A DNA stretch of 64,000 nt, taken from positions 9,760-73,759 of the forward strand of contig CALQZW010000001.1 in NCBI GenBank assembly GCA_943350045.1. The letters run 5' to 3'. This document shows positions 650 through 63,514 of the stretch, in pieces. How positions within the stretch are numbered: position 1 is the stretch's first letter; every line of letters starts with the position of its first letter. The notes beneath the pieces were generated by a model. The model worked only from the letters and a program-made list of their open reading frames with translations, was not told where the DNA came from and made no database searches. The translations under genes were made by a program, and so were the position numbers. This DNA comes from Candidatus Nomurabacteria bacterium. GTDB taxonomy: Bacteria; Patescibacteriota; Minisyncoccia; Phycocordibacterales; UBA9973.

Positions 650-1306
650 ATGAAAAATATGAACTTTACAAAGCGTGCAGCTATTGCTGCAACATGTGCG
701 CTATCTTTGGTAGCAATCATTACTCCATCACTCGCTTCAGCCGCATCACTTACTCGCCAGCTTCAGCTTGGAATGAAGGGTGCTGACGTTTCAACTCTCC
801 AGTCTTTCCTTGCCGTTGATAACACAATCTACCCACAGGGGCTCGTTACTGGATATTTCGGAGGACTAACAAAGTCTGCTGTTTCTAACTTTCAGTCACG
901 CAACAATCTTGCAACTGTAGGACGCGTTGGGCCACAGACACTCGCCGTTATAAACGCCCAGATGGCAGGAGGTGGAGCGGTCTTTGGAGATATTGATGCT
1001 GCAACAATCACAAATCTTTCAGTAAGTCGTTCAAATACATCAGCAAGTATTTTCTGGAACACATCTGAGGAGACACGTGGAGTTGTATATTACAGCACTT
1101 CACCATTAAATGAAACTGAATATGAAAACACTGTAACTGTTGTTGGTGCTATGACAGCAATGACAGATGGCGCATACCGCACATCTCAGAACATTATGCT
1201 CAGTAATCTTCAGTCAAACACAAACTACTACTACCTCGTTCATACAACTGATCAGGCTGGGAACGTAAGTGTTAGTGTTCCACTCATGTTTACTACAGCT
1301 TTCTAA
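650..1306 (+). CDS. secreted protein with a putative peptidoglycan-binding (PG_binding_1-like) domain and an FN3-like C-terminal domain
   Basis: There is a signal peptide (MKNMNFTKRAAIAATCALSLVAIITPSLASA). The block LQLGMKGADVSTLQSFLAVD...GYFGGLTKSAVSNFQ resembles a PG-binding repeat, and the C-terminal half is beta-rich. Confidence 0.55.
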   Translation: MKNMNFTKRAAIAATCALSLVAIITPSLASAASLTRQLQLGMKGADVSTLQSFLAVDNTIYPQGLVTGYFGGLTKSAVSNFQSRNNLATVGRVGPQTLAVINAQMAGGGAVFGDIDAATITNLSVSRSNTSASIFWNTSEETRGVVYYSTSPLNETEYENTVTVVGAMTAMTDGAYRTSQNIMLSNLQSNTNYYYLVHTTDQAGNVSVSVPLMFTTAF

Positions 1307-12053: not shown

Positions 12054-12178
12054 GACGCTGTCTATTTAATTGGTTATCACAAGTCCCAACAGTACCTCTG
12101 AAAACCAATCAAATACCACGTTTAAGAAACACTATTGTAAAAGATAATAGCATATTTTATATAAAAGTCAATACGATG

Positions 12179-12250
12179 CTCCCCCGGCAGGGATCGAACC
12201 TGCGACCAATCGATTAACAGTCGATTGCTCTACCGCTGAGCTACAGGGGA
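12179..12250 (-). tRNA. tRNA-Asn (anticodon GUU)
   Basis: The reverse complement TCCCCTGTAGCTCAGCGGTAGAGCAATCGACTGTTAATCGATTGGTCGCAGGTTCGATCCCTGCCGGGGGAG folds as a cloverleaf with anticodon loop cuGUUaa. Confidence 0.85.
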
Positions 12251-20109: not shown

Positions 20110-20334
20110 ATGAAGAAAATTATTCACTCCATTCGCAATAAGCCAAAGCATGTACGACAGCGCATTTTGGTTATCTGCATGGTCGTGATTACTCCGCTAT
20201 TGCTTGCCGGTGGGATATTCTCCTTTTTCTATGGAAGAAACCATTCAAAGCAAGAGGGTAATTCAGTATGGACTGGACTGTTCGACGCAGTTTCTTCTTC
20301 AGCAGATTTCATGATAGAATCCGATAACATATGA
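20110..20334 (+). CDS. small membrane protein, hypothetical
   Basis: It has one TM helix and its stop overlaps the gyrA start (ATGA). Confidence 0.4.
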
Positions 20335-22808
20335 GCCTAAAGAAACCCCAGAAAGATTCAAGAGATATTCCGAGTGCAGATACTGTACATAATGCAGTAG
20401 TGCCAATCGGTATTGGAAACGAAATGAAGACGTCGTTTATTAGTTATGCGATGTCTGTTATTACTGACCGTGCGCTTCCTGACGTTCGTGACGGTCTCAA
20501 GCCAGTACACCGTCGTATTTTGTACGCAATGCACGAAATGGGGCTTACTTCGAGTGCGAAAACAAAGAAGTCTGCAGCCGTAGTGGGAGACGTGCTTGGA
20601 AAATATCACCCACACGGAGATACGTCTGTGTATGACGCAATGGTGGGAATGGCACAGGACTTTTCTCTTCGTTATCCAACAATCATCGGACAAGGTAACT
20701 TCGGATCAGTAGACGGCGACAATGCAGCCGCGATGCGTTATACCGAAGCAAAGATGAGTAAGGTTGCAGGTGAGATGCTTAAAGACCTCGACAAAGAAAC
20801 TGTTGATTGGCGCGGTAACTATGACGCAACACTCAAAGAACCTATCGTTCTTCCTGCGGGAGTTCCAAACCTTATCCTCAACGGAACACTTGGAATCGCA
20901 GTGGGAATGGCAACAAACATTCCTCCCCACAACCTCACAGAGGTTCTTGATGCTACCTTACACCTTACGCAAAACCCAGACGCTACAACAGAAGACCTTA
21001 TGGGATTTGTAAAAGGCCCAGACTTTCCAACAGGAGGAGTCGTGTATGGAACAAAAGACATGCTTCATGCCTATACATCTGGACGTGGAGGAGTTGTCTG
21101 TCGTGGAGAGGCAGAAATCGTTGAGCAAAAAGCAGGTATCTCTCAGATTGTCATCACAAGTCTTCCATACCGCGTCGTCAAACAAAATCTTGTCATGGCT
21201 ATTGCCGAGCTTGTGCAGGAAAAGAAACTCGAAGGAATCAAGGGTCTTCGCGACGAATCTACAAAAGATATTCGTATTGTTATCGACTTGAAACAGGGAG
21301 TATTTCCGCAGAAAGTTCTCAACTATCTTTACAAGCATACACAGCTTGAGACTGCATTCCATTTGAACATGGTTGCTCTCGTGAATGGAGTTCCTCAGAC
21401 ACTTTCTCTAAAATCTATTCTCGAAGAATTTATTAAACACCGCAAAGACGTCGTAAAGCGCCGTACTATTTTCGAGCTTCGCAAAGCAGAGGAGCGTGAG
21501 CATATTTTACTTGGTCTCAAGAAGGCACTCGACCATATCGATCGTGTCATTTCAATCATCCGTGCTTCAAAAGACGCAGCGCTTGCGAAGCTCAACCTTA
21601 TCAAAGAGTTTAAGTTTTCTGATTTACAGGCAACTGCTATTTTGGAAATGCGCCTTCAGAAACTTGCCGGTCTTGAGCGTAAGCAGGTAGAAGAAGAATT
21701 GAAAGAAAAGCAGGCACTCATTGCCGAGCTCAAAGCTATTCTCGCAAGTGAGAAACGCATGCTTGCCGTTATTGCAGGAGAACTCGCAGATATCAAGGAG
21801 CGCTTTGGAGATGCTCGCCGTACTCGTGTGGTAAAGGGAGGTGTAAAAGAAATCACTGACGAAGACCTTATCCCAGAGCGCGAAAGCATGCTCGTGTTTA
21901 CTGCAGGTGGATATGTAAAGCGCACAGACCCAAGCGAATACCGCTCACAAAAGCGTGGAGGTGTGGGAGTTGTTGACCTTGAAACAAAGGAAGAAGACTT
22001 CGTTACAATGCTTCTCTCTGCGAATACTCACGACGATTTGTTGTTCTTCACAAACCTTGGAAAGGCGTATCAGATTAAAATGTACGACTTGCCAGAAGGG
22101 CGTCGCGCAACAAAAGGAAAGAGTATTATGAACTTCCTCTCGCTCTCTGCTGACGAAAAAGTCATGTCTATTCTTCCTGTTCCAAAGGGACAGAAAGGAA
22201 AAGAGCAGTATCTTTTCCTTATGACTGAAAACGGTACTGGAAAAAAGATGAGCGCAAAACAGTTTGCCGATGTTCGTCGTAACGGAATCATTGCAATCAA
22301 ACTCGACAAGAGTGACTCACTCCGCGGAGCAAACCTTGTGGAAAAGGGAGACGAAATCATGCTCGCAACTGCAAAGGGTCAGTCTGTTCGCTTCAAGGAG
22401 AGTGATGTTCGTGAAATGGGACGCACTGCAGGTGGTGTTCGCGCAATGAAGCTTGGAAAAGGCGACAGTATTGTTGGCTTTGACATCGTAAAGAAAGAAA
22501 CTCGCGACACTGCAGTACTGCTTGTCATGTCTGCAAACGGACTTGGAAAGAAAACTCCACTGAAGGAATACAAGACTCAGAAGCGTGGAGGATCTGGAAT
22601 TAAAACTGCAAAGGTTACTCCAAAAACAGGGGACCTTATTATGGCAAAGGTTGTCACCGACGAAGCTGAACTCATTGCTATGAGTCAGAAAGGGCAGGTG
22701 ATTCGCACAGCCATGGACTCTATCAGTAAACTCGGACGGCAGACTCAGGGAGTGACAATTATGAAGATGCGTGCGGGAGACAAAGTTGCTTCCATTACGT
22801 GTTTGTAA
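20331..22808 (+). CDS. gyrA: DNA gyrase subunit A
   Basis: [28 protein letters not shown] and the active-site region are present, and the C-terminal beta-pinwheel repeats with the GyrA box-like QRGG motif. Confidence 0.95.
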
Positions 22809-22829
22809 AACGTATGATACAATTATTGA

Positions 22830-23357
22830 GTGAATTTTCTCAATCCTGAAGATGCACTCAAACAGTTTGGTATCTACGGCGCACAAGATGTCGCTGATAT
22901 TGGTTCTGGCGCAGGACATTTTTCTTTAGCCGCAGCAAAACGCCTCGAAGGGGGGCGTTTGTTTGCTATTGATATACAAAAAGATATGCTTACGCGACTC
23001 GACTCTCTTGCAAGCGATGCAAGTATTAAAAACATCCACACGATTTGGGGCGATGCAGGAGTATACAAAGGTGTTCCGCTGGCCGATGGTTCGCTCGATA
23101 GGGCAATGGTGGTAAATATTTTACACAGCGCAGAAGACCGTGACGTATTAGCAAAAGAAGTTCGTCGTTTAGTAAAGTCGGATGGAAAAGTTTTGCTGAT
23201 TGACTGGCACGATACTGCCCACATGGGTCCACATCCTCGTCATCGCATCGATGAAGCCACTGCACTCGGATTCTTTACTCGACATGGATTTGAAAAAGAA
23301 AAAGATATCGATGCAGGTGGGTATCACTATGGTATGATATTGAAAGTGGTTCGCTGA
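22830..23357 (+). CDS. class I SAM-dependent methyltransferase
   Basis: Motif I VADIGSGAGHFSL is present. Confidence 0.65.
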   Translation: MNFLNPEDALKQFGIYGAQDVADIGSGAGHFSLAAAKRLEGGRLFAIDIQKDMLTRLDSLASDASIKNIHTIWGDAGVYKGVPLADGSLDRAMVVNILHSAEDRDVLAKEVRRLVKSDGKVLLIDWHDTAHMGPHPRHRIDEATALGFFTRHGFEKEKDIDAGGYHYGMILKVVR

Positions 23358-23372
23358 TTTTTTTCTATATTT

Positions 23373-24692
23373 ATGAATAGCTTTAAAACAATTGTGCTTG
23401 CAGTATTTATCGGAGCAACCGTTATCGGAGTGCTTGTTTTCTCTGGAATCATAAACATCGGAGGACGTGCGGCCGATGTATCGGTAGAAGGAAGCGTAAC
23501 TCTCTGGGGGACATTTAGTTCTCGCGACATGTCTCCTTTAGTGCAAGATTACAATATCCGCAATCAGAAAATACCAATCACGTATGTAGAGAAAAGCCCT
23601 GCAACGTTTACAGACGACCTTGTTGAAGCGCTTGCTCGAGGAACAGCTCCCGACGTCGTTATTCTCCCTGACAATCTCATAAACCGTTTTGAAGACAAGG
23701 TAACACATATTTCTTTTGCCACACTTCCTGCTCGTACATTTGCCGATACCTTTGTGTCAGGAGCTTCAATTTTCTTGGCGAAAGATGGAGCAATAGGGGT
23801 TCCGTGGGCAGCAGATCCGCTCGTGTTGTATTACAACAAAAATCTTCTTGAAGGTGCAGGAGTTGTTAAAGTTCCTGCGAACTGGAAAGAGTTTAGTGAT
23901 ACAGTGCCAGCAATGACTCAAAAGCGTGAAGACATGACGCTTATTTCTTCTGGCGCCGCTCTTGGAACATTTACAAATATTGCGCACGCAAAAGATATTA
24001 TTGCATTGCTTTTTTTGCAGACAGGAAATCTATTCATTTCAAATGGAGTGCCTGTAGTTCCACATTTTGGCACATCTTCAGTTACTGCAAATACGGCAAA
24101 TGTAGGTCCCGAAGCTCTCAATTTTTTCACTGCGTTCTCAAACCCTGTGAATGACGTATACAGCTGGAACGCAGGACAGCCGCTAGACCGAGATGCGTTT
24201 GTGCGTAGTTCTCTCGCGTACTATTTTGGAACTGCAAGCGAGCTTCCTCTTATCTCATCTTCAAACCCAAACCTCCGTTTCGACGTTGCCTTGCCTCCAC
24301 AGTCATCTGCGACAACTCCAAGCACGACAGGTCGCATCTACGGCCTTGTAATTCCAAAGACTGCGCCCAACCAGCTTCTTTCGTATACTGCCGCAACTGC
24401 ATTTGCAAATACTGCGTCATCAACTGCTCTCGTAGAGAAAGCGGGAACTACGCTTGCTCTTATGCCGGTGCGTCGTGACGTGCTTGCAAACATTCCGACC
24501 GCAGACCCGTATCTTGCACTTATGTACAGAGCAACGCTTTTGCAGCGAACATGGTTTGATCCAAATCCGGTAAAGTCCAATGAAGTGTTTGCCTCACTCG
24601 TGCGTGAAATTACGAGTGGTATTGCAACTGTCGAGCAGGCTTTGTCGAAAGCTGCGACTCAGATTACTGCGCTTTCTCGAACAGCTCTCTAA
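23373..24692 (+). CDS. extracellular solute-binding protein (ABC-type, family 1-like), membrane-anchored
   Basis: There is an N-terminal TM or signal segment. TLWG, LYYNKNLL..AG...P.NWKEF and further SBP-family blocks are present. No permease or ATPase genes are adjacent. Confidence 0.55.
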   Translation: MNSFKTIVLAVFIGATVIGVLVFSGIINIGGRAADVSVEGSVTLWGTFSSRDMSPLVQDYNIRNQKIPITYVEKSPATFTDDLVEALARGTAPDVVILPDNLINRFEDKVTHISFATLPARTFADTFVSGASIFLAKDGAIGVPWAADPLVLYYNKNLLEGAGVVKVPANWKEFSDTVPAMTQKREDMTLISSGAALGTFTNIAHAKDIIALLFLQTGNLFISNGVPVVPHFGTSSVTANTANVGPEALNFFTAFSNPVNDVYSWNAGQPLDRDAFVRSSLAYYFGTASELPLISSSNPNLRFDVALPPQSSATTPSTTGRIYGLVIPKTAPNQLLSYTAATAFANTASSTALVEKAGTTLALMPVRRDVLANIPTADPYLALMYRATLLQRTWFDPNPVKSNEVFASLVREITSGIATVEQALSKAATQITALSRTAL

Positions 24693-24697
24693 AGCCT

Positions 24698-26059
24698 ATG
24701 CGTACTTTTTTGAAAAAAATTCTCTTTGCCGGATTCCTATTTTTTGCCGTAGCTAGTCCGACGTTAGTTTCAGCTCAGACGACATTCCAGCCAGGAGCGA
24801 CTGTCTTGCCGCCTACTGTGCTTGATACGAGCGCTGTGATTCGAGGGGTAGTTACAGACCCCCTTGTGCGCTCTATTTTCATTACCTATGCATCTAGCGA
24901 CCTTAGTCCTGGTGGAGAAGTAAATGCATTTATCGAACCCACGGGAACCTTTTCTGTAGAGCTTTTTGATCTTCAGCCTTCTACTTCATATCTGTATCAA
25001 GTCATTGATGCCGAAACAAACCGCCAGCTCACGGCGTCTTTTCCGTTCCGTACCAAAAGTAATCTATTTAATTTTCGCGTAGAACAAGTTTCAGAGAACT
25101 CAGCTACTCTCTATGGAACGGTAACCAGTACAAAACCTGACCTTCGCATTCTGTGGGGTGAGGCAGAGGTAACTGAATATCAGCATAGCTTTACGCCGAC
25201 AATACGAGGAAACCGCACGTTTGTAGAAAAGCTTACGGACCTCCTTCCGAATACAAAGTACAAGGTAGTGCTTGTGAAGGCCAGCGACGAGAAATCACGT
25301 CTCAGTGGAGTATATGGATTTACTACGCTTGGGATAAACGCATCGCCATATATGGGAGTCGTGAAAGACACACAGGCCACTGTGAATGTTCGTCTTCCAA
25401 GCGGACTGAGCGAAGTCTATGTGTATTATGGAGTTAAGACTGACGAACTCTCAAGTCAGGCTCTTATGAAAGAGGAGGAAACGGGTCTCTATACAACGAG
25501 TTTGACCGGTCTTACTCCGGACACTGTGTATCACTATAAAATAGTTGGGCGTGATGATACGGGAGCGCCTGTTGTGTACGGAAATATTTCAGTGATAGGA
25601 ACTGACGAAGACGGTAAACCTATTCTCTTTGGTAGTATGTTTAGTTTCCGCACTGTGGCAAGTCAGACACCAGTTACAGTTCGCACTATTGTCGACACTG
25701 TCGGCTCACTCGTGGGAAACGGACCTGAGGAGTACAAAGGAGGAATCGTTCAGTGTTCTGGAGTAGACGATGCCGGAAATGTTACCTGTGGCTTTAGTGA
25801 TTTTTTGGCAATGATAAATAGAGTGATTGAGTTCATCGTGTTCTATCTCGTGCCTGCTATCGCAACAATCATTATCATGATGGCTGGGTTCGTGCTTCTT
25901 ACGGCAGGAGGAGATCCTGGCAAGATTAAAACTGCGAAATCTATGCTTAAGAATGTGGTGACCGGAATCGTTATCGTTACCGGAGCATGGCTTTTGATCA
26001 AGACTATTCTGATCGGTATTGGATACAACACGGATATTTTCCCCGATGTCTTTTCATAA
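24698..26059 (+). CDS. large secreted repeat protein with a C-terminal VirB2/TrbC-type (T4SS-pilin-like) two-helix module
   Basis: A signal peptide is followed by FN3-like beta repeats. The C-terminus is INRVIEFIVFYLVPAIATIIIMMAGFVLLTAGGDPGKIKTAKSMLKNVVTGIVIVTGAWLLIKTILIGIG, which is paralogous to the four downstream small proteins. Confidence 0.6.
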   Translation: MRTFLKKILFAGFLFFAVASPTLVSAQTTFQPGATVLPPTVLDTSAVIRGVVTDPLVRSIFITYASSDLSPGGEVNAFIEPTGTFSVELFDLQPSTSYLYQVIDAETNRQLTASFPFRTKSNLFNFRVEQVSENSATLYGTVTSTKPDLRILWGEAEVTEYQHSFTPTIRGNRTFVEKLTDLLPNTKYKVVLVKASDEKSRLSGVYGFTTLGINASPYMGVVKDTQATVNVRLPSGLSEVYVYYGVKTDELSSQALMKEEETGLYTTSLTGLTPDTVYHYKIVGRDDTGAPVVYGNISVIGTDEDGKPILFGSMFSFRTVASQTPVTVRTIVDTVGSLVGNGPEEYKGGIVQCSGVDDAGNVTCGFSDFLAMINRVIEFIVFYLVPAIATIIIMMAGFVLLTAGGDPGKIKTAKSMLKNVVTGIVIVTGAWLLIKTILIGIGYNTDIFPDVFS

Positions 26060-26081
26060 TAACTTGGTATACTACTAGCAT

Positions 26082-26471
26082 ATGAACACATCTTGGATAA
26101 AGAACATTCAGTATAAAGTCACCGCAGTTATAGCGGCAGTGACGATGTTTGCGGTACCGTTTGCAGTCCGTGCCCAGCTCGAAGGTGGCACTGCTCAGAA
26201 AAAGCTCGCGTGGAGTATTAAAAACCCGATCGGAGCAGAAACAATACAGCAGCTCATCATTCAGATTACAAGCGCAATGGTGCTTGTGATGAGTCCAGTC
26301 ATTGTTCTCATGCTTATCTACAGTGGGTTTCTTTTTGTGTATCATGCAAATAATCCGGAGAAGCTTAAAACAGCACAGGCAACCTTATTATGGACTATAG
26401 CAGGAGCTGCAATTATTCTTGGTGCGAAGGGAATCGCCCTTGCGATTCAGGCAACAATAGTACAACTATAA
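26082..26471 (+). CDS. T4SS-pilin-like (VirB2/TrbC family) small secreted protein, paralog 1
   Basis: The layout is signal peptide, hydrophobic helix, short charged loop (NNPEKLKTAQ), then a second hydrophobic helix. Confidence 0.55.
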   Translation: MNTSWIKNIQYKVTAVIAAVTMFAVPFAVRAQLEGGTAQKKLAWSIKNPIGAETIQQLIIQITSAMVLVMSPVIVLMLIYSGFLFVYHANNPEKLKTAQATLLWTIAGAAIILGAKGIALAIQATIVQL

Positions 26472-26475
26472 TTTT

Positions 26476-26916
26476 ATGAAAAATCTTATCCTCCACCTAT
26501 CTCGCTATAGTGCATCAATCATTTTTGTCCTCGTTCTTATTGCCAGCCCTGTTGTGTCTATTGCTCAAGTATCTGCAGAAACTCAGCAGTCATATTGTGC
26601 CGGTTTTTCAGGTAGTCTTGACCTTGATCAGAAAAAGACAGTCAGTGACGTGCTCAAGTTTGGAACCTGTTTTATTCAAAAATCAATTATCCCACTGTTG
26701 TTTGCAATAGCAGTGCTTGTCTTTATTTACGGAGTGGTCGACTTCATCCGTGCATCAGCTACTGATGGTGGAGATTTAAAAGAAAAGAAGCAGTTTATGG
26801 TATGGGGAATCGTTGCGCTCGCAGTCATGACGGGCGTTTGGGGGCTTGTGGCCATCATTACCAACACGTTTGGTATTGGAAACGTTATTCCACAGCTTCC
26901 TGTTAACCCACAATAG
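26476..26916 (+). CDS. T4SS-pilin-like small secreted protein, paralog 2
   Basis: PLLFAIAVLVFIYGVVDFIRAS...KKQFMVWGIVALAVMTGVWGLVAIITNTFGIG shares motifs with paralogs 3 and 4. It has two Cys before the helices. Confidence 0.55.
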   Translation: MKNLILHLSRYSASIIFVLVLIASPVVSIAQVSAETQQSYCAGFSGSLDLDQKKTVSDVLKFGTCFIQKSIIPLLFAIAVLVFIYGVVDFIRASATDGGDLKEKKQFMVWGIVALAVMTGVWGLVAIITNTFGIGNVIPQLPVNPQ

Positions 26917-26987
26917 GTGTGGTATACTTAAATAAAGGCGTATTTCGTCAGGCGGTATATATTAGAAATTAATTTTATTGTATTTTC

Positions 26988-27368
26988 ATGAAAAAGAATT
27001 TTGCAGTGCTCGGTGCTACAGTCGCTAGTTTCCTTATGCCAGCAGTTGTGTTCGCTCAGGACCTTGCAGCACAGTGTGCTGTTGTAGGTGGTGGAACTGT
27101 AGACAGTCTTATCTGTCGCGTATATTCTATCGTTCGCATTATTATTCCTCTCCTTATTCTTGGAGCCGTTGCATTCTTTATATATGGAGTAATTAACTTT
27201 ATTCGTGCAGATAGTGATGACGAGAAGAAAAAAGGAAAGGCATTGATGGTAAATGGTATTATCGGCTTCGCTGTAATTCTTGGTCTCTGGGGTCTTGTTT
27301 CAATCCTTCTTAACACAGCAGGTGTCGGAGGCGGATCTGTAAACCAGGGCGCATTCCCAACATTCTAG
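26988..27368 (+). CDS. T4SS-pilin-like small secreted protein, paralog 3
   Basis: The key block is IIIPLLILGAVAFFIYGVINFIRADSDDEKKKGKALMVNGIIGFAVILGLWGLVSILLNTAGVGG. Confidence 0.55.
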   Translation: MKKNFAVLGATVASFLMPAVVFAQDLAAQCAVVGGGTVDSLICRVYSIVRIIIPLLILGAVAFFIYGVINFIRADSDDEKKKGKALMVNGIIGFAVILGLWGLVSILLNTAGVGGGSVNQGAFPTF

Positions 27369-27389
27369 TTTTCACCCGAGACATCTCTC

Positions 27390-27707
27390 ATGCATGATTT
27401 TCTCATAACACATCTTGGAGTATCAGTTGCATACGCCCAGACAAAAGTGTCACCAGTTGCTACTTTTGTTGGGAAGATAAACCGACTCATCATAAATCCA
27501 CTCATCGTTCTCATGTTCGCTGCGGCCCTCGCTTACTTCATTTTTGGAGTTATGCAGTTTATAGCAGACGGAGCAGAGAAGAAAACTGAGGCGAAAAATA
27601 GTATGCTGTGGGGGCTCGTTGGAATGGCAATCATGTTTGGAGTCTTTGGAATCATTAAACTCATCGAGTCTACGCTCGGCGTGTCGAATGTGAATCCGAA
27701 TCTCTAG
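27390..27707 (+). CDS. T4SS-pilin-like small secreted protein, paralog 4
   Basis: The key block is INPLIVLMFAAALAYFIFGVMQFIADGAEKKTEAKNSMLWGLVGMAIMFGVFGIIKLIESTLGV. Confidence 0.55.
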   Translation: MHDFLITHLGVSVAYAQTKVSPVATFVGKINRLIINPLIVLMFAAALAYFIFGVMQFIADGAEKKTEAKNSMLWGLVGMAIMFGVFGIIKLIESTLGVSNVNPNL

Positions 27708-27757
27708 GAGATATAAAGAAAAAGGCATTACACGATTGTGTGTAATGCCTTTTTGAT

Positions 27758-28333
27758 TTACTTTGTAGGACGGTATATTGAATATACTAATGTACCGTAT
27801 TTTCCGTGTTTCTCGCACGGCTTGATTCTTAAATACCGAGAGGAGAGTGAAATTTCAAAGTCATACGAACCCTTTTCCTTGGTAGGTATGCACGTATGGT
27901 GTTGCTCTTCTCCGATATATTTTGTTGAACCCTGCCAGATAACTAAATGAGGTAGGTCAATCGTCGAGAGATGAATTGAGTCATCTTTTGCTATAGTGAA
28001 GTGTAGAACCTCTCCCTTTTTTAGGGGTGTTTCTATCTTCGAGACCAACTTGTATTTAGGCTGCAAGTTCTGACCCCTAAAGAATAGTAAGTAGACGGTA
28101 ACCAAAAATACAATCATTCCGATAAATTTTAGAACCCCCACTGGAATCGATTTTAATGACTCCAGAATGCTTGTGTCTGGTTCGCTTGGACCCTCTGGCT
28201 TGCCCTGGCTTTTCTTGAATGTATCTTCGGGTATTTGCTTTATTATGTACCTAACTATGTACACAATAATAATACAAGATACAATCGCAATTACTGCATA
28301 GAACCCAATTTGGTAATTATTTAGCTGGCTCAT
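27758..28333 (-). CDS. membrane protein, possibly NfeD-like partner of the SPFH protein
   Basis: It has two TM helices plus a C-terminal beta-rich domain. Its start overlaps the stop of the upstream SPFH-like gene. Confidence 0.35.
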   Translation of the reverse strand: MSQLNNYQIGFYAVIAIVSCIIIVYIVRYIIKQIPEDTFKKSQGKPEGPSEPDTSILESLKSIPVGVLKFIGMIVFLVTVYLLFFRGQNLQPKYKLVSKIETPLKKGEVLHFTIAKDDSIHLSTIDLPHLVIWQGSTKYIGEEQHHTCIPTKEKGSYDFEISLSSRYLRIKPCEKHGKYGTLVYSIYRPTK

Positions 28334-29657
28334 CCTTCTTATTTTCGGGGTTAACTGAATACGTAGGTATTACTGGAGGAGTAGGTCCTGTGTTTCCAAA
28401 AATTAATGTATGAACTTTTCCGAGTTCTTCATATATTTTTGCAAGAGTAGGATCTGGAGGAGTTCCATTTACCAAATTGAGGTAGGCTCTTTTTGCTTCA
28501 CCAAGCTTTGCGAGATAACTGGCTTCTTCTGCGCCTCGTGCTTGGCCTTGTTTTGTTCTTACTGCGATCTCAACTTCAGCTCTCGCGATTGCCTGCTTCG
28601 CAGTAAACATCATGGATGTTACTTCGTCGCCAGGTATGATGTCTTTCCATTCCAGCTTTCTAAATGAAATACCGTATTGGATTTCCGAACCTTCGGTTAG
28701 CGTGTTTGCTCTGTCGTCATATAGCCCATATGAGGCAATGCGAAGCTTTTTTCTAAACTCTGAGAAAGCAGCATTATGTTCAGTGCTTTGTATGAAATCG
28801 AGCGAGACACTCGCTACGAATTCACGTACAGCTGCCTGAACCGGTGTCACGGCTCGGAGCTTTAGGTTTGGTCCTATTTGCAGGAGTTGTGCAGTATTGA
28901 CTATGTCAATTTTGCCGTACACGAAGGCGGTAAGATTAAACATCTGACCTTTTCGAGGGGCTCCCTTTTTAGGTAATGCTGGTGCAGTAGTGTCACTTGT
29001 TTCGTCCGATGGACCTGTATCCAAACTCGGACAAGCAATCTCTCCAAAAATTTCAAACGGAAGGTACGGAGACGTCGTTGTCTTTGTAATTATACATTCT
29101 TTTCCATCGTAGCTTGTCCACTTGATTTTGAATCCAGGATGACCGTTGTGGTCTTTCTCGTCTCCTGTTATGAGGGCTCGAACCTCGTCGGCTTGGACGT
29201 GTTTCGTTTCTGATGCGTAGGTCCACTCTATAAGGCCAGTAAATGGGTAGAATCCAGTAGATACGCAACCGAAGTTTTTTTCTAGGAATTTTTCTTCTTT
29301 TACATAAATCCCCCAGTCTCTTTTAGGTATTTCGTTTCTATCAAGAAACTCATATCCGCGGTTTGCCCAGCCGTATATTGGCTGACCAGTACTGTCTACA
29401 CCTAGAAGTGTTTTTCTTATTCGATACCAACGGGGGTATCGAGGGTCATAATTTATACTCTGAGGATCATTGATGAAATACTCCTCACTGAATGGGGCAA
29501 CAACTCGATGGATTGTACCTCCAATTTTACGTATTGTGAGGGTGTGACCATCACGAAGTTTTTTTATACCCATAAGGTAAGACCATATTGATAATGGTAT
29601 ACATAGGAGAATAATTGCAAAGAATGCTCCTGAAATAATTTCAATTGTCGCTGACAT
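28317..29657 (-). CDS. SPFH/band-7 (stomatin/flotillin-like) domain membrane protein
   Basis: There is an N-terminal TM helix. The C-terminal Ala/Glu-rich segment TAKQAIARAEVEIAVRTKQGQARGAEEASYLAKLGEAKRAY is typical of the coiled-coil tail of SPFH proteins. Confidence 0.45.
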   Translation of the reverse strand: MSATIEIISGAFFAIILLCIPLSIWSYLMGIKKLRDGHTLTIRKIGGTIHRVVAPFSEEYFINDPQSINYDPRYPRWYRIRKTLLGVDSTGQPIYGWANRGYEFLDRNEIPKRDWGIYVKEEKFLEKNFGCVSTGFYPFTGLIEWTYASETKHVQADEVRALITGDEKDHNGHPGFKIKWTSYDGKECIITKTTTSPYLPFEIFGEIACPSLDTGPSDETSDTTAPALPKKGAPRKGQMFNLTAFVYGKIDIVNTAQLLQIGPNLKLRAVTPVQAAVREFVASVSLDFIQSTEHNAAFSEFRKKLRIASYGLYDDRANTLTEGSEIQYGISFRKLEWKDIIPGDEVTSMMFTAKQAIARAEVEIAVRTKQGQARGAEEASYLAKLGEAKRAYLNLVNGTPPDPTLAKIYEELGKVHTLIFGNTGPTPPVIPTYSVNPENKKDEPAK

Positions 29658-29741
29658 GCTTTTAAGTTTTTAAAGTGAAAGATTAATTTTCACCATTGTA
29701 ACCTAGTTTTGACAAATAGTCAATTATATTGTGCCGGGAAG

Positions 29742-29823
29742 AGGACTTGAACCTCCATGGGTCACCCCGTCTGCTCCTAAGGCAGGTGCGTCTACCAATT
29801 TCGCCATCCCGGCATATTCTTTT
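29742..29823 (-). tRNA. tRNA-Leu (anticodon UAG)
   Basis: This is a type II tRNA with a long variable arm and anticodon loop cuUAGga. Confidence 0.8.
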
Positions 29824-29845
29824 TGCTTAGTACCTTGCGTACTTG

Positions 29846-29918
29846 TCCGCCCAGTTGGATTCGAACCAACGACCAATCGCTTAAGAGGCGAGTGCTCTAC
29901 CAACTGAGCTATGGGCGG
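29846..29918 (-). tRNA. tRNA-Lys (anticodon CUU)
   Basis: The reverse complement GCCCATAGCTCAGTTGGTAGAGCACTCGCCTCTTAAGCGATTGGTCGTTGGTTCGAATCCAACTGGGCGGA has anticodon loop cuCUUaa. Confidence 0.8.
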
Positions 29919-29942
29919 AAATGTTGGTGAAAAACAGATACA

Positions 29943-29970
29943 GTATACCTTTTTTTAGAAAAAGTTCAAG
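29943..29970 (-). promoter_or_regulatory. sigma70-like promoter for the tRNA-Lys/tRNA-Leu transcript
   Basis: The minus strand reads TTGAAC-16 nt-TATACT, about 25 nt upstream of the mature tRNA-Lys 5' end. Confidence 0.5.
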
Positions 29971-30286
29971 TATATTTGGGTAGGAAGTCTCTTTCGAAAA
30001 TCGAAACCCCGCGTTAAGCGGGGTTTCTCGGAGCCTTACGGCACTTTGTATTTTTAGTATAGCAAAGTAGTTTCTTTTGTAAAAGTGATAGATCTTATTA
30101 AACTTTAAAATAGAACAACTCCTTTTAAGGGAGTTGCCGGCTCTTGCGAGCAAGAGAGGTAACCTCTCAATTCTTAGATAATAATCTCGATTGGAGTTAT
30201 ATGCAAGATTACAGAATGATAATCTAGAATACAAAAGAACACTTCATATTGAAGTGTTCTTGATGTTGTTAGTGTGCCTATAGCAT

Positions 30287-38739: not shown

Positions 38740-38796
38740 AATTCTACTCAAGAAAGTATATAAAAACCGCATCTAAATTCGATGCGGTTTTTGTTT

Positions 38797-38882
38797 TGGT
38801 GCGCCGGGAAGGATTTGAACCTTCGTAGCCCGAAGGCGACAGATTTACAGTCTGTTGTAATTGACCACTCTACCACCGACGC
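38797..38882 (-). tRNA. tRNA-Tyr (anticodon GUA) with encoded 3' CCA
   Basis: This is a type II tRNA with anticodon loop cuGUAaa. ACCA is encoded at the 3' end. Confidence 0.8.
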
Positions 38883-40539: not shown

Positions 40540-40600
40540 CAAATACGGTATACTATAGGAGTTTAGAAATATTTTAACTCTTAATTGGTACACTATTCTT

Positions 40601-42575: not shown

Positions 42576-42745
42576 GTGTGATTGATACTAGCAAATTATT
42601 AGCAAACTTTGAAGTTGGTCGTAATAGAAAAACTCAAAGCATTACTGCCTTGAGTTTTTCCTGTTCCTCTGTCTTGCGACAGAGTCGGGCCGAAGCCATT
42701 TGTACTTGTAGTATATCAAACAAAAATACACTGAGTCAAACAATG

Positions 42746-42826
42746 TGCCGGAGAAGGGACTTGAACCCTTAAGCCTTACGGCATGCGATTTTGAGTCGCA
42801 CGTGTATACCATTCCACCACTCCGGC
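42746..42826 (-). tRNA. tRNA-Leu (anticodon CAA)
   Basis: This is a type II tRNA with anticodon loop cuCAAaa. Confidence 0.8.
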
Positions 42827-53327: not shown

Positions 53328-53387
53328 GGTAAGAGCGTACAGAACACATTCTGTACGCTCTTTTTTTCTGCTATACTCTCACTATCT

Positions 53388-60060: not shown

Positions 60061-60081
60061 GTGATATACTGGTAGGCGTAT

Positions 60082-62951: not shown

Positions 62952-63514
62952 GAATTGGTAGAGTAACAGCGCTTGAACTCCTGTTCTGTTTCTACGTCGA
63001 GCTGGTCTGTGACGATTATCATAAGCTCGCAGGTGAGTCCGAAGTCTGTTTTAATATTTTGAAAAAGAAACTCAAACGGAAAAGGGGAGATCCATGCCGA
63101 GTTTTTTAGAAGTACGAAGCCGGCTTTCTTGAGCAAGTAGCGGAGCGCTTCGCGTTCCGCTTTTCGTGTCTCCGGCAGGTCAAGCAACACTATACGCCAC
63201 TTTCCATCCCACGCAGTGCTTGCGAGAGAGTTTTTGCTATCGAGCTTCAGACTTGCGAGTTTTTGTTTTCCGCGGCGGGTGAGGCGAGCATACTGACTCT
63301 GCTCTGTATCTATTGTTTCAATAAAGCCGGTCTCGGCGAGATTTTTAATACTGCGAGTGACTGCATATGCGCCAGTTTTCTGCTCAGTACTGGGGATATC
63401 TGAGACAACTTCGTCTTTGAGGTCGACAAGCTTTACTGCCTGCTTCCCAGAGAGGGTATTGAGGATTTTCCTTGAAAAATCTGCCTTTTTTGCCATGCCG
63501 GCATTATAACACAA
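62948..63514 (-). CDS. winged-helix transcriptional regulator (PaaX-like architecture, tentative)
   Basis: The N-terminal wHTH is ...AVTRSIKNLAETGFIETI. The C-terminal block is WDGKWRIVLLDLPETRKAEREALRYLLKKAGFVLLKNSAWISP. It is divergent from dnaK. Confidence 0.4.
   Translation of the reverse strand: MCYNAGMAKKADFSRKILNTLSGKQAVKLVDLKDEVVSDIPSTEQKTGAYAVTRSIKNLAETGFIETIDTEQSQYARLTRRGKQKLASLKLDSKNSLASTAWDGKWRIVLLDLPETRKAEREALRYLLKKAGFVLLKNSAWISPFPFEFLFQNIKTDFGLTCELMIIVTDQLDVETEQEFKRCYSTNS

Follow-up and report, generated by a model that had tools for sequence, protein, structure and literature searches.

Tandem arrays of VirB2-like pilin genes are a published hallmark of the Patescibacteria (PMC10633639, PMC12102498, PMC12857230). 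In a survey of 3,035 genomes with the Pfam families PF04956 and PF18895 (Quinonero-Coronel et al. 2025; PMC12102498), VirB4 was present in 2,417 of the genomes and VirB2-like pilins in 1,948 of the VirB4-positive assemblies, with pilin genes near virB4 in 1,135 of these (about 58%). An array was defined there as pilin genes in tandem or one gene apart, of low mutual identity and in a Patescibacteria genome, and 441 arrays of 2-11 pilin genes were reported, with a mean identity of 25% and a maximum of 54%. The pilin arrays of Southlakia epibionticum lie within an essential type IV secretion system (T4SS) cluster (ML1 SEML1_0006-0019), and in this single species tested the T4SS and the pilin array are essential to epibiotic growth (Wang 2023; PMC10633639). 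The systems have been described as unique among monoderms for their potential conjugative-type pili (FEMS review 2025; PMC12857230), and host-range or antigenic versatility has been proposed for the arrays (PMC12102498). Here we describe five adjacent genes at positions 24698-27707 (plus strand) of a 64,000-nucleotide stretch of the Candidatus Nomurabacteria contig CALQZW010000001.1, the whole of which is referred to as the window. The locus is probably a chromosomal VirB2-like pilin array whose products serve epibiosis as a T4SS-assembled pilus or stalk-like structure.

The kind of array is already known, and this one fits the published description exactly in size and identity, with five tandem genes whose products are 22-52% identical. 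As in the arrays of Southlakia ML1, Nanosynbacter lyticus TM7x and the 441 surveyed, the genes are small divergent PF18895 tandem paralogs encoding a signal peptide and two hydrophobic helices, and they are chromosomal in a monoderm host of the Candidate Phyla Radiation (CPR). Unlike the arrays of virB4 clusters this one lies in a context of gyrA, a methyltransferase gene and a gene for a solute-binding-protein (SBP)-like product, and unlike published Patescibacterial arrays its first gene is joined to three FN3 domains. Some of its details appear undescribed, namely the positional orthology, the FN3 fusions in the first two positions, the SBP coupling and a conserved internal promoter-like element; five-slot orthology, SBP-like coupling and such an element are not discussed in the available portions of the accounts of published arrays. 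The features of the array, with its genes designated slots 1 to 5, are as follows.

24698-26059, plus strand: slot 1 fusion protein, 453 aa, with a signal peptide (residues 1-26), three FN3-like domains, a linker, a Cys hairpin and a T4SS_pilin module
24797-25651, plus strand: slot 1 ectodomain, three tandem FN3-like beta-sandwich domains (Pfam, AlphaFold, Foldseek)
25754-26059, plus strand: slot 1 C-terminal pilin module, with the Cys hairpin, two helices and an FPxxF tail
26082-26471, plus strand: slot 2 pilin-like protein, 129 aa, with a signal peptide and two-helix module (T4SS_pilin, 30.4 bits)
26476-26916, plus strand: slot 3 pilin-like protein, 146 aa, with a signal peptide, a Cys41/Cys65 pair and a two-helix module, and no Pfam match
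26988-27368, plus strand: slot 4 pilin-like protein, 126 aa (T4SS_pilin, 28.0 bits), the most conserved paralog
27390-27707, plus strand: slot 5 pilin-like protein, 105 aa, with a short N-terminus and related to slots 3 and 4

An initial annotation had proposed that five consecutive plus-strand genes carry a common C-terminal module, and this is borne out by the open reading frames (ORFs), hydropathy and homology. In all five proteins the module consists of a pair of hydrophobic segments, each about 25-37 residues long, with a short and slightly basic loop rich in Lys, Glu and Asp between them. Pairwise comparison shows that the modules are related well beyond chance: the 146- and 126-aa paralogs match with an E value of 1.6e-20 (52% identity), the 146- and 105-aa paralogs with 4.8e-19 (44%) and the 126- and 105-aa paralogs with 1.4e-15 (35%). 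The 129- and 453-aa paralogs stand further apart but remain linked, through matches of the 129-aa to the 105-aa protein (E 1.5e-9) and of the 453-aa to the 129-aa protein (E 1.6e-6). When each array protein was compared with all 580 window ORFs using phmmer, only these five matched. A chance likeness of hydrophobic segments is thus ruled out by E values down to 1e-20 and by the confinement of the matches to five of the 580 ORFs. The motifs quoted for the module in the initial annotation, FIYGV..FIRA and M.WG..G.A....WGLV, occur literally in the 146-, 126- and 105-aa proteins and only loosely in the 129- and 453-aa proteins. A conserved Cys pair stands directly before the first helix in slots 1, 3 and 4.

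The predicted topology is of two long hydrophobic helices in all five proteins, preceded in four of them by a clear Sec-type signal peptide that ends in A-x-A before Q. A signal peptide had been attributed to each of the last four proteins, which holds for those of 129, 146 and 126 aa. For the 105-aa protein it is doubtful because the N-terminus is just 16 residues long (MHDFLITHLGVSVAYA before Q), lacks both a charged n-region and a real hydrophobic core, and is just as short in the orthologs.

The gathering cut-offs of PF18895 (T4SS_pilin) and PF04956 (TrbC/VirB2) are 26.6 and 27.9 bits, respectively. Against PF18895 the 453-aa (33.0 bits), 129-aa (30.4 bits) and 126-aa (28.0 bits) proteins score above the cut-off, placing the array in this family, and the 105-aa protein scores below it (20.5 bits); the 146-aa protein has no match at all in the Pfam scan and is 52% identical to a family member, the 126-aa protein. 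The two hydrophobic helices and short polar loop of a PF18895-type hairpin are seen by hydropathy and AlphaFold, with the reservation about the signal peptide of the 105-aa protein. Matches to PF04956 are in register, at 16.3 bits (453 aa), 17.1 bits (129 aa) and 14.7 bits (105 aa) with E values of 0.006-0.04, and the Pfam scan gives none for the 146- and 126-aa proteins. Among 55 diverse relatives, 53 match PF18895 (E<=0.01) and eight match TrbC. These profile searches, with three of the five proteins passing PF18895 and none passing TrbC, uphold the earlier assignment to a T4SS pilin-like superfamily. With PF18895 reached and PF04956 not, the resemblance to canonical VirB2/TrbC pilins is one of architecture and remote similarity only. 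The AlphaFold model of the 126-aa protein, built with 18 orthologs, begins with a signal-peptide helix and continues as a hairpin of two long helices (H38-73 and H77-110).

Two families of better known T4SS proteins are helpful for comparison. With the VirB2/TrbC/TraA pilins of diderms (PF04956, F-type) the array proteins share the Sec signal peptide, the two long helices and the short basic loop; they differ in scoring under the Pfam cut-off and in lacking a significant match in the PDB, in coming from a host without an outer membrane, and in numbering five paralogs instead of one major pilin, and no genes for a VirB5-type tip protein, a cyclase or an acetylase were seen here. The Mbov_0395 family (NCBIfam NF045849), from an integrative and conjugative element (ICE) of Mycoplasma, likewise consists of small membrane proteins with two helices that belong to a monoderm T4SS. 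It is the best or only NCBIfam match of the array proteins, all five of which match it at 16-34 bits (33.9 bits for the 105-aa protein), but these scores are below its cut-off of 40 bits and there is no ICE context.

The slot 1 protein combines the pilin module with a large ectodomain. The T4SS_pilin match covers residues 380-436, and the ectodomain matches Pur_ac_phosph_N in three stretches (49.8 bits) and fn3 (27 bits). In the AlphaFold model (eight homologs; mean confidence score, pLDDT, 73.4) beta-sandwich domains are predicted at about residues 34-118, 127-209 and 218-318, followed by a low-confidence or disordered linker (325-351), a Cys353-Cys364 hairpin and helices H366-402 and H407-440, so that the two-helix pilin module spans residues ~366-440. 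Foldseek matches the model to triple-FN3 fragments of tenascin, fibronectin and Tie2 (E about 1e-13), and C353 and C364 are invariant in eight close homologs. Pfam, the AlphaFold model and Foldseek thus all bear out the proposal that an FN3-like ectodomain is joined to the pilin module. The best cross-genome matches of the module are the slot 1 genes of nine other genomes, including those that have no ectodomain.

To place the fusion in a broader context, a profile of the 453-aa family was compared with 1.84 billion cluster representatives, matching 23,551 proteins at E<=1e-3 and 73 at E<=1e-30. The best 150 proteins of this search together with close homologs of the 453-aa protein give a set of 156, among which are the following.

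64 of 156: ectodomain with a pilin module at the extreme C-terminus, 225-784 aa
11 of 156: short pilins, 81-183 aa
76 of 156: giant proteins with only FN3-like repeats in common, 741-4999 aa
5 of 156: proteins with 5-8 tandem pilin modules per polypeptide, 501-820 aa

The module is at the extreme C-terminus in all 64 fusion clusters. The initial annotation regarded the fusion as unusual, which is so relative to classical diderm VirB2 pilins but not within this lineage, where it is common (64 of the 156 top cluster representatives). Classical pilins are not known to carry ectodomain fusions at the N-terminus. The surface domains of VirB5 tip proteins, pCF10 PrgB and PamR also mediate contact at a filament or secretion machine, but here the FN3 stalk is covalently joined to the pilin module itself, and the likeness is one of functional analogy only. 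Among the loci of related genomes (given L numbers), slot 1 is either 384-702 aa long with Pur_ac_phosph_N-type repeats or short (109 aa in L009 and 148 aa in L019), and the positional orthologs of slot 2, which is of the short form here, are fn3 fusions of 365-863 aa in L007, L014, L016 and L017. In slots 1 and 2 taken together, the majority of related genomes encode one or two such fusions. Because both their length and their presence differ among relatives, the ectodomains are lineage-variable additions to two fixed slots.

Several other proteins have related compositions. The five poly-pilins (P0179, P0183, P0194, P0219 and P0236), with 5-8 tandem T4SS_pilin modules, have 10-16 predicted transmembrane helices, and poly-pilins are located within other Patescibacteria pilin arrays (L021, 76-1743; L022, 9925-12387). 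L022 also encodes a 383-aa pilin with a weak PKD-domain match, followed by a 718-aa PKD-repeat protein. Within the window a 215-aa secreted protein with PG_binding_1 and Pur_ac_phosph_N matches is encoded at 650-1306 (plus strand), and giant Ig/fn3 proteins of 1324-1637 aa are encoded near the arrays of relatives (L016, 13442-18352; L015, 12189-16160). The FN3/Pur_ac_phosph_N-type repeats of the slot 1 ectodomain recur in other secreted proteins of this genome and its relatives and are shared with large cell-surface proteins.

In the explanation that we favour, a T4SS-dependent pilin array, each protein would after signal-peptide cleavage form a membrane hairpin with its N- and C-termini outside and its basic loop inside. 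A monoderm-type T4SS encoded elsewhere in the genome (VirB4, VirB3/PrgI and VirB6/PrgH) would extract the pilins, which would be assembled into a pilus-like or stalk-like envelope structure for epibiotic contact with the host. The five slots would probably be used together as a hetero-assembly, with slot 4 as the likely major structural subunit and slot 1 as a likely adhesin-bearing minor, tip or base subunit, whose N-terminus would display the three FN3 domains outside the cell. Gain, loss and lengthening of the slot 1 and 2 ectodomains would then tune the recognition of hosts or surfaces.

Several observations weigh against this explanation. No VirB4, polytopic VirB6 or VirD4 is encoded in the 64-kb window, as the initial annotation had noted and as inspection of the ORFs confirms, those of more than 250 aa all being assigned to housekeeping functions or lacking multi-transmembrane and ATPase features. 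In the related loci, about 15 in number, neither these three genes nor any unassigned ORF as large as VirB4 occur within 10 kb of the array. Proteins identical to those of the array are present in the metagenome-assembled genome (MAG) GCA_964201745.1 and in ENA metagenome assemblies, and the contigs of this MAG (~10 kb) that reach past the window add about 5 kb of housekeeping genes and no VirB4. The sequence link to canonical VirB2 is weak, no protein reaching the PF04956 cut-off, and PDB profile searches give no significant pilin match, either with 18 orthologs (best match the F-type pilin 9moq_A, E 0.13) or with 55 diverse members. The confidence of the slot 4 model is only moderate (pLDDT 68), and a Foldseek search of the PDB with it yields just generic helical matches (best E 1.2), which is uninformative because the fold is a simple hairpin. 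The roles suggested for a major subunit and a tip adhesin, and the promoters described below, are drawn from conservation and motifs. We found no report of a T4SS-dependent pilus seen in a Patescibacterium.

This last point also bears on an alternative that we consider unlikely yet deserving of attention, in which the PF18895 proteins do not form an extended pilus and are instead part of a hetero-oligomeric membrane platform or channel of a monoderm T4SS, or plain two-helix anchors, slot 1 then being a cell-surface FN3 adhesin held by its anchor. The MPF-FATA T4SSs of monoderms are normally without pili (PMC12102498, PMC12857230), no T4SS pilus has to our reading of the literature been reported for CPR bacteria, and all five proteins match, below threshold, a family from the wall-less monoderm Mycoplasma. 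The poly-pilins with 5-8 modules also suggest subunits working side by side in a fixed stoichiometry. However, the helices are 32-37 residues long, which exceeds a plain transmembrane span and is similar to the wall helices of VirB2-type pilins, and the essential Southlakia array is viewed by specialists as encoding potential pilus subunits (PMC12857230). In VirB2-type pili both termini of the subunit face outward. Tandem fusions and N-terminal ectodomains are for this reason compatible with a filament too.

The preferred reading, a pilin array with all slots in use, can be examined further by comparison with relatives, those found with the slot 4 protein being Ca. Nomurabacteria, Paceibacterota and similarly labelled MAGs. 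Together with the housekeeping gene content, these relatives identify the organism as a Patescibacterium of the Paceibacteria/Nomurabacteria type. About 15 loci, one of them (L009) on a 720-kb scaffold, share the gene order S1 protein, metallo-beta-lactamase-fold protein, gyrA, methyltransferase, SBP-like gene and pilin array, with GyrA proteins 83-98% identical to that of the window and with IF-2, an aminotransferase and ClpB encoded beyond the array. Orthology was compared in 10 genomes for slots 2-5 and in nine for slot 1, the array of L013 being cut at a contig end. For each window paralog the best match in every genome carrying the slot is the gene at the equivalent position, with ortholog identities of 34-84% that are usually above the 26-52% seen between paralogs of the array. 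For slot 3, whose identity is 52% with slot 4 and 44% with slot 5, positional orthologs occur in 10 genomes; slot 5 orthologs are 46-69% identical in 10 genomes. Slot 4 has 18 orthologs at 50-88% identity, in which C30 and C43 are invariant and GIIGFAVILGLWGLV is nearly so. Since orthologs at each slot are usually more similar than paralogs, the duplications predate the clade and all of the copies have been retained. No DNA repeats, cassette features or conversion tracts are seen among the array copies, and all five are complete ORFs with a start codon each. In comparison with L004, which is the closest relative (97.9% identity in GyrA), the pilins show 60-83% identity and a ratio of non-synonymous to synonymous substitution (dN/dS) of about 0.10-0.17 wherever dS is unsaturated; slot 4 has the lowest dN of the five (0.118). 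Non-synonymous change is 8-22 times faster in the pilins than in gyrA. The array genes are thus fast-evolving yet clearly constrained by purifying selection, and the array is an old, fixed set of five members rather than a recently amplified or recombining reservoir.

These comparisons bear on the suggestion of a pilin or adhesin reservoir made in the initial annotation, according to which alternative pilins or adhesins would be used one at a time for antigenic or host-range variation. The idea has been proposed for the VirB2 paralog arrays of Bartonella and Anaplasma, has been raised for Patescibacteria (PMC12102498) and has some appeal here, where the paralogs are very divergent and rapidly changing and the slot 1 and 2 ectodomains appear and vanish among relatives. 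Against it, every slot has a positional ortholog that is usually closer than any paralog of the same array, there are no repeats or conversion tracts, each copy retains its start codon with dN/dS well under 1, and the array pilins of Southlakia are reported to be essential (PMC10633639). The lack of DNA repeats together with a dN/dS of ~0.1-0.17 speaks against the array as a variation reservoir, and a fixed set argues against antigenic variation, at least in this clade; we regard this explanation as very improbable. Nor does the array fit antigenic-variation cassettes, with their recent lineage-specific paralogs, silent copies and repeats allowing recombination, in view of the orthology, the lack of repeats, the complete ORFs and the dN/dS of 0.10-0.17. 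The virB2 arrays of Bartonella, Anaplasma and Rickettsia likewise contain tandem divergent copies associated with a T4SS for host interaction (PMC12102498), but the copies here are clade-wide positional orthologs under purifying selection, which argues for joint use rather than variation.

A different surface-filament system (type IV pili, sortase pili or the CPR Pam pilus, with slot 1 as a PamR-like FnIII tether), also raised in the initial annotation, is the least probable explanation of all and scarcely credible: slot 1 superficially resembles PamR in its FN3/Ig-like domains and C-terminal membrane anchor and no T4SS genes are close by, but there is no prepilin-peptidase or LPXTG motif, an Ig-like domain is missing from the four small proteins, each of which is an all-alpha hairpin, the locus contains neither a chaperone-like nor an usher-like gene, and Pfam places the module in T4SS_pilin. 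Type IV pilins (T4P/Com/Tad) were rejected because none of the five has the motif G-(F/M)-(T/S)-L-I-E, cleaved after the G, and the hydrophobic helices are C-terminal, and sortase pili because LPXTG is absent from all five proteins. Pam pilins (PamA/PamB) have an Ig fold, donor-strand exchange and PapD-like chaperones and are found mainly in Saccharimonadia and Microgenomatia, and PamR has two FnIII domains and a C-terminal transmembrane helix; compared by description only with PamA-D, the small proteins here are all-alpha and have no chaperone-like gene. Overall, the family proposed in the initial annotation stands, and its descriptions of the locus as a reservoir, as a different system and as unusual are wrong or unproven.

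Returning to the pilin array as a T4SS-assembled structure, we note that a further gene is closely associated with it.

23373-24692, plus strand: membrane-anchored solute-binding-protein-like gene, 439 aa (Pfam SBP_bac_8, 65.4 bits; SBP_bac_1, 49.9 bits)

The product has a transmembrane segment at its N-terminus, and the PDB entries distantly related to it are SBPs that bind sugars (best E 8e-9). The gene ends 5 nt before slot 1 in the window and runs 10-26 nt into the first pilin gene in L014, L016, L018, L028 and L029. It lies directly 5' of the array in every related locus that extends that far; it is absent from the more distant array of L022. No ABC permease or ATPase gene was seen near it. 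The SBP-like gene is probably an operon partner of slot 1, and its product may be a functional partner of the pilins, or the association may reflect the general synteny of this clade.

Sequences resembling an extended -10 promoter element are also associated with the array. The pattern TGNTAYAMT occurs 18 times in the window where 7.6 matches are expected, a number reached in none of 100 shuffles, and many matches are 6-11 nt 5' of start codons. Because of this enrichment just upstream of start codons, widespread leaderless or near-leaderless transcription in the organism is suggested. The matches near the array are listed here.

22815-22823: extended -10-like element before the methyltransferase gene
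26065-26073, plus strand: extended -10-like element TGGTATACT, 8 nt before the slot 2 start codon
26920-26928, plus strand: extended -10 element TGGTATACT, within the 71 nt that separate slots 3 and 4

From these three elements, transcription is predicted to start at about 22825, 26080 and 26935. The element before slot 2 is also present at the equivalent place in L004, L009 and L028 and, judged from the motif, might act as the promoter of a leaderless or near-leaderless transcript. That before slot 4 is found in 10 of 11 genomes, in the form TGGTATAAT, TGGTACAAT or TGATATAAT, and the spacer containing it, which measured 71-127 nt in four loci, is the longest gap of the array throughout. The element may serve as an internal promoter, in which case the leader would be about 59 nt long. 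In the leader (26929-26987) and the equivalent spacers of L004-L019, AAAGG(T)CA and TTATTAG-like blocks recur in several genomes without an Rfam match, and may be a conserved 5' untranslated element. Slot 4 is a candidate for the major subunit because it is the most conserved of the five and has its own conserved promoter-like element. Further TGNTAYAMT examples are at 40586-40594, 53369-53377, 60062-60070 and 63503-63511.

Taking the pilins and the SBP-like protein together, we tentatively propose, as a possibility well short of even, that the five slots and the SBP-like protein form a single heteromeric T4SS-dependent filament or stalk, in which the VirB2-type module of slots 1 and 2 would be a socket for swappable FN3 or PKD adhesin stalks, the orphan SBP would capture a solute derived from the host, and the ectodomain would set host specificity. 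If so, this would be a covalent pilin-adhesin, which is not known from classical T4SS pili. The locus leaves the general picture of these arrays unchanged. Patescibacteria are a large and mostly uncultured share of bacterial diversity, and a conserved set of five slots with one candidate major subunit provides a clean comparative handle on the structure built from their pilins. The variable FN3 ectodomains of slots 1 and 2 are candidate determinants of host recognition, the SBP-like gene tightly coupled to the array is a partner awaiting explanation, and the array could guide the choice of subunits to tag, delete or model in a tractable Paceibacteria co-culture.

The remainder of the window is ordinary chromosome with the housekeeping content of a small genome. 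The array follows gyrA (20331-22808), the methyltransferase gene and the SBP-like gene, and elsewhere there are genes for IF-2, ClpB, TopA, RelA/SpoT, DprA, SerRS, HisRS and ParB, and nine tRNAs. An Rfam scan of 22500-30000 identifies two tRNAs only and no RNA element in the array. One further feature lies immediately downstream of slot 5.

27719-27754, both strands: bidirectional terminator-like hairpin with a 15-16-bp stem, T runs on both strands and a perfect 15-nt inverted repeat

This resembles an intrinsic terminator and would end transcription of both the array and the convergent downstream gene. Two minus-strand genes follow, encoding a 191-aa protein with two transmembrane segments (27758-28333) and a 446-aa protein with a weak SPFH/Band_7 match (28317-29657). 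They are only 33-34% identical to their counterparts in L004, a value far below those for GyrA (97.9%) and SBP (82%) in the same comparison, and the pair is for this reason taken as a hypervariable or replaced locus. Among other features of the window, the segment 10000-12250 has a GC content of 36% compared with ~44%, contains three small minus-strand ORFs without an assignment beside a tRNA-Asn gene (12178-12250), and may be an integrated element. ARAGORN predicts minus-strand genes for tRNA-Tyr (38782-38882) and tRNA-Leu(caa) (42745-42826) that overlap the 5' ends of the ORFs called for alanine racemase and ParB, and because of these overlaps the true starts of both ORFs are probably further downstream than those called.

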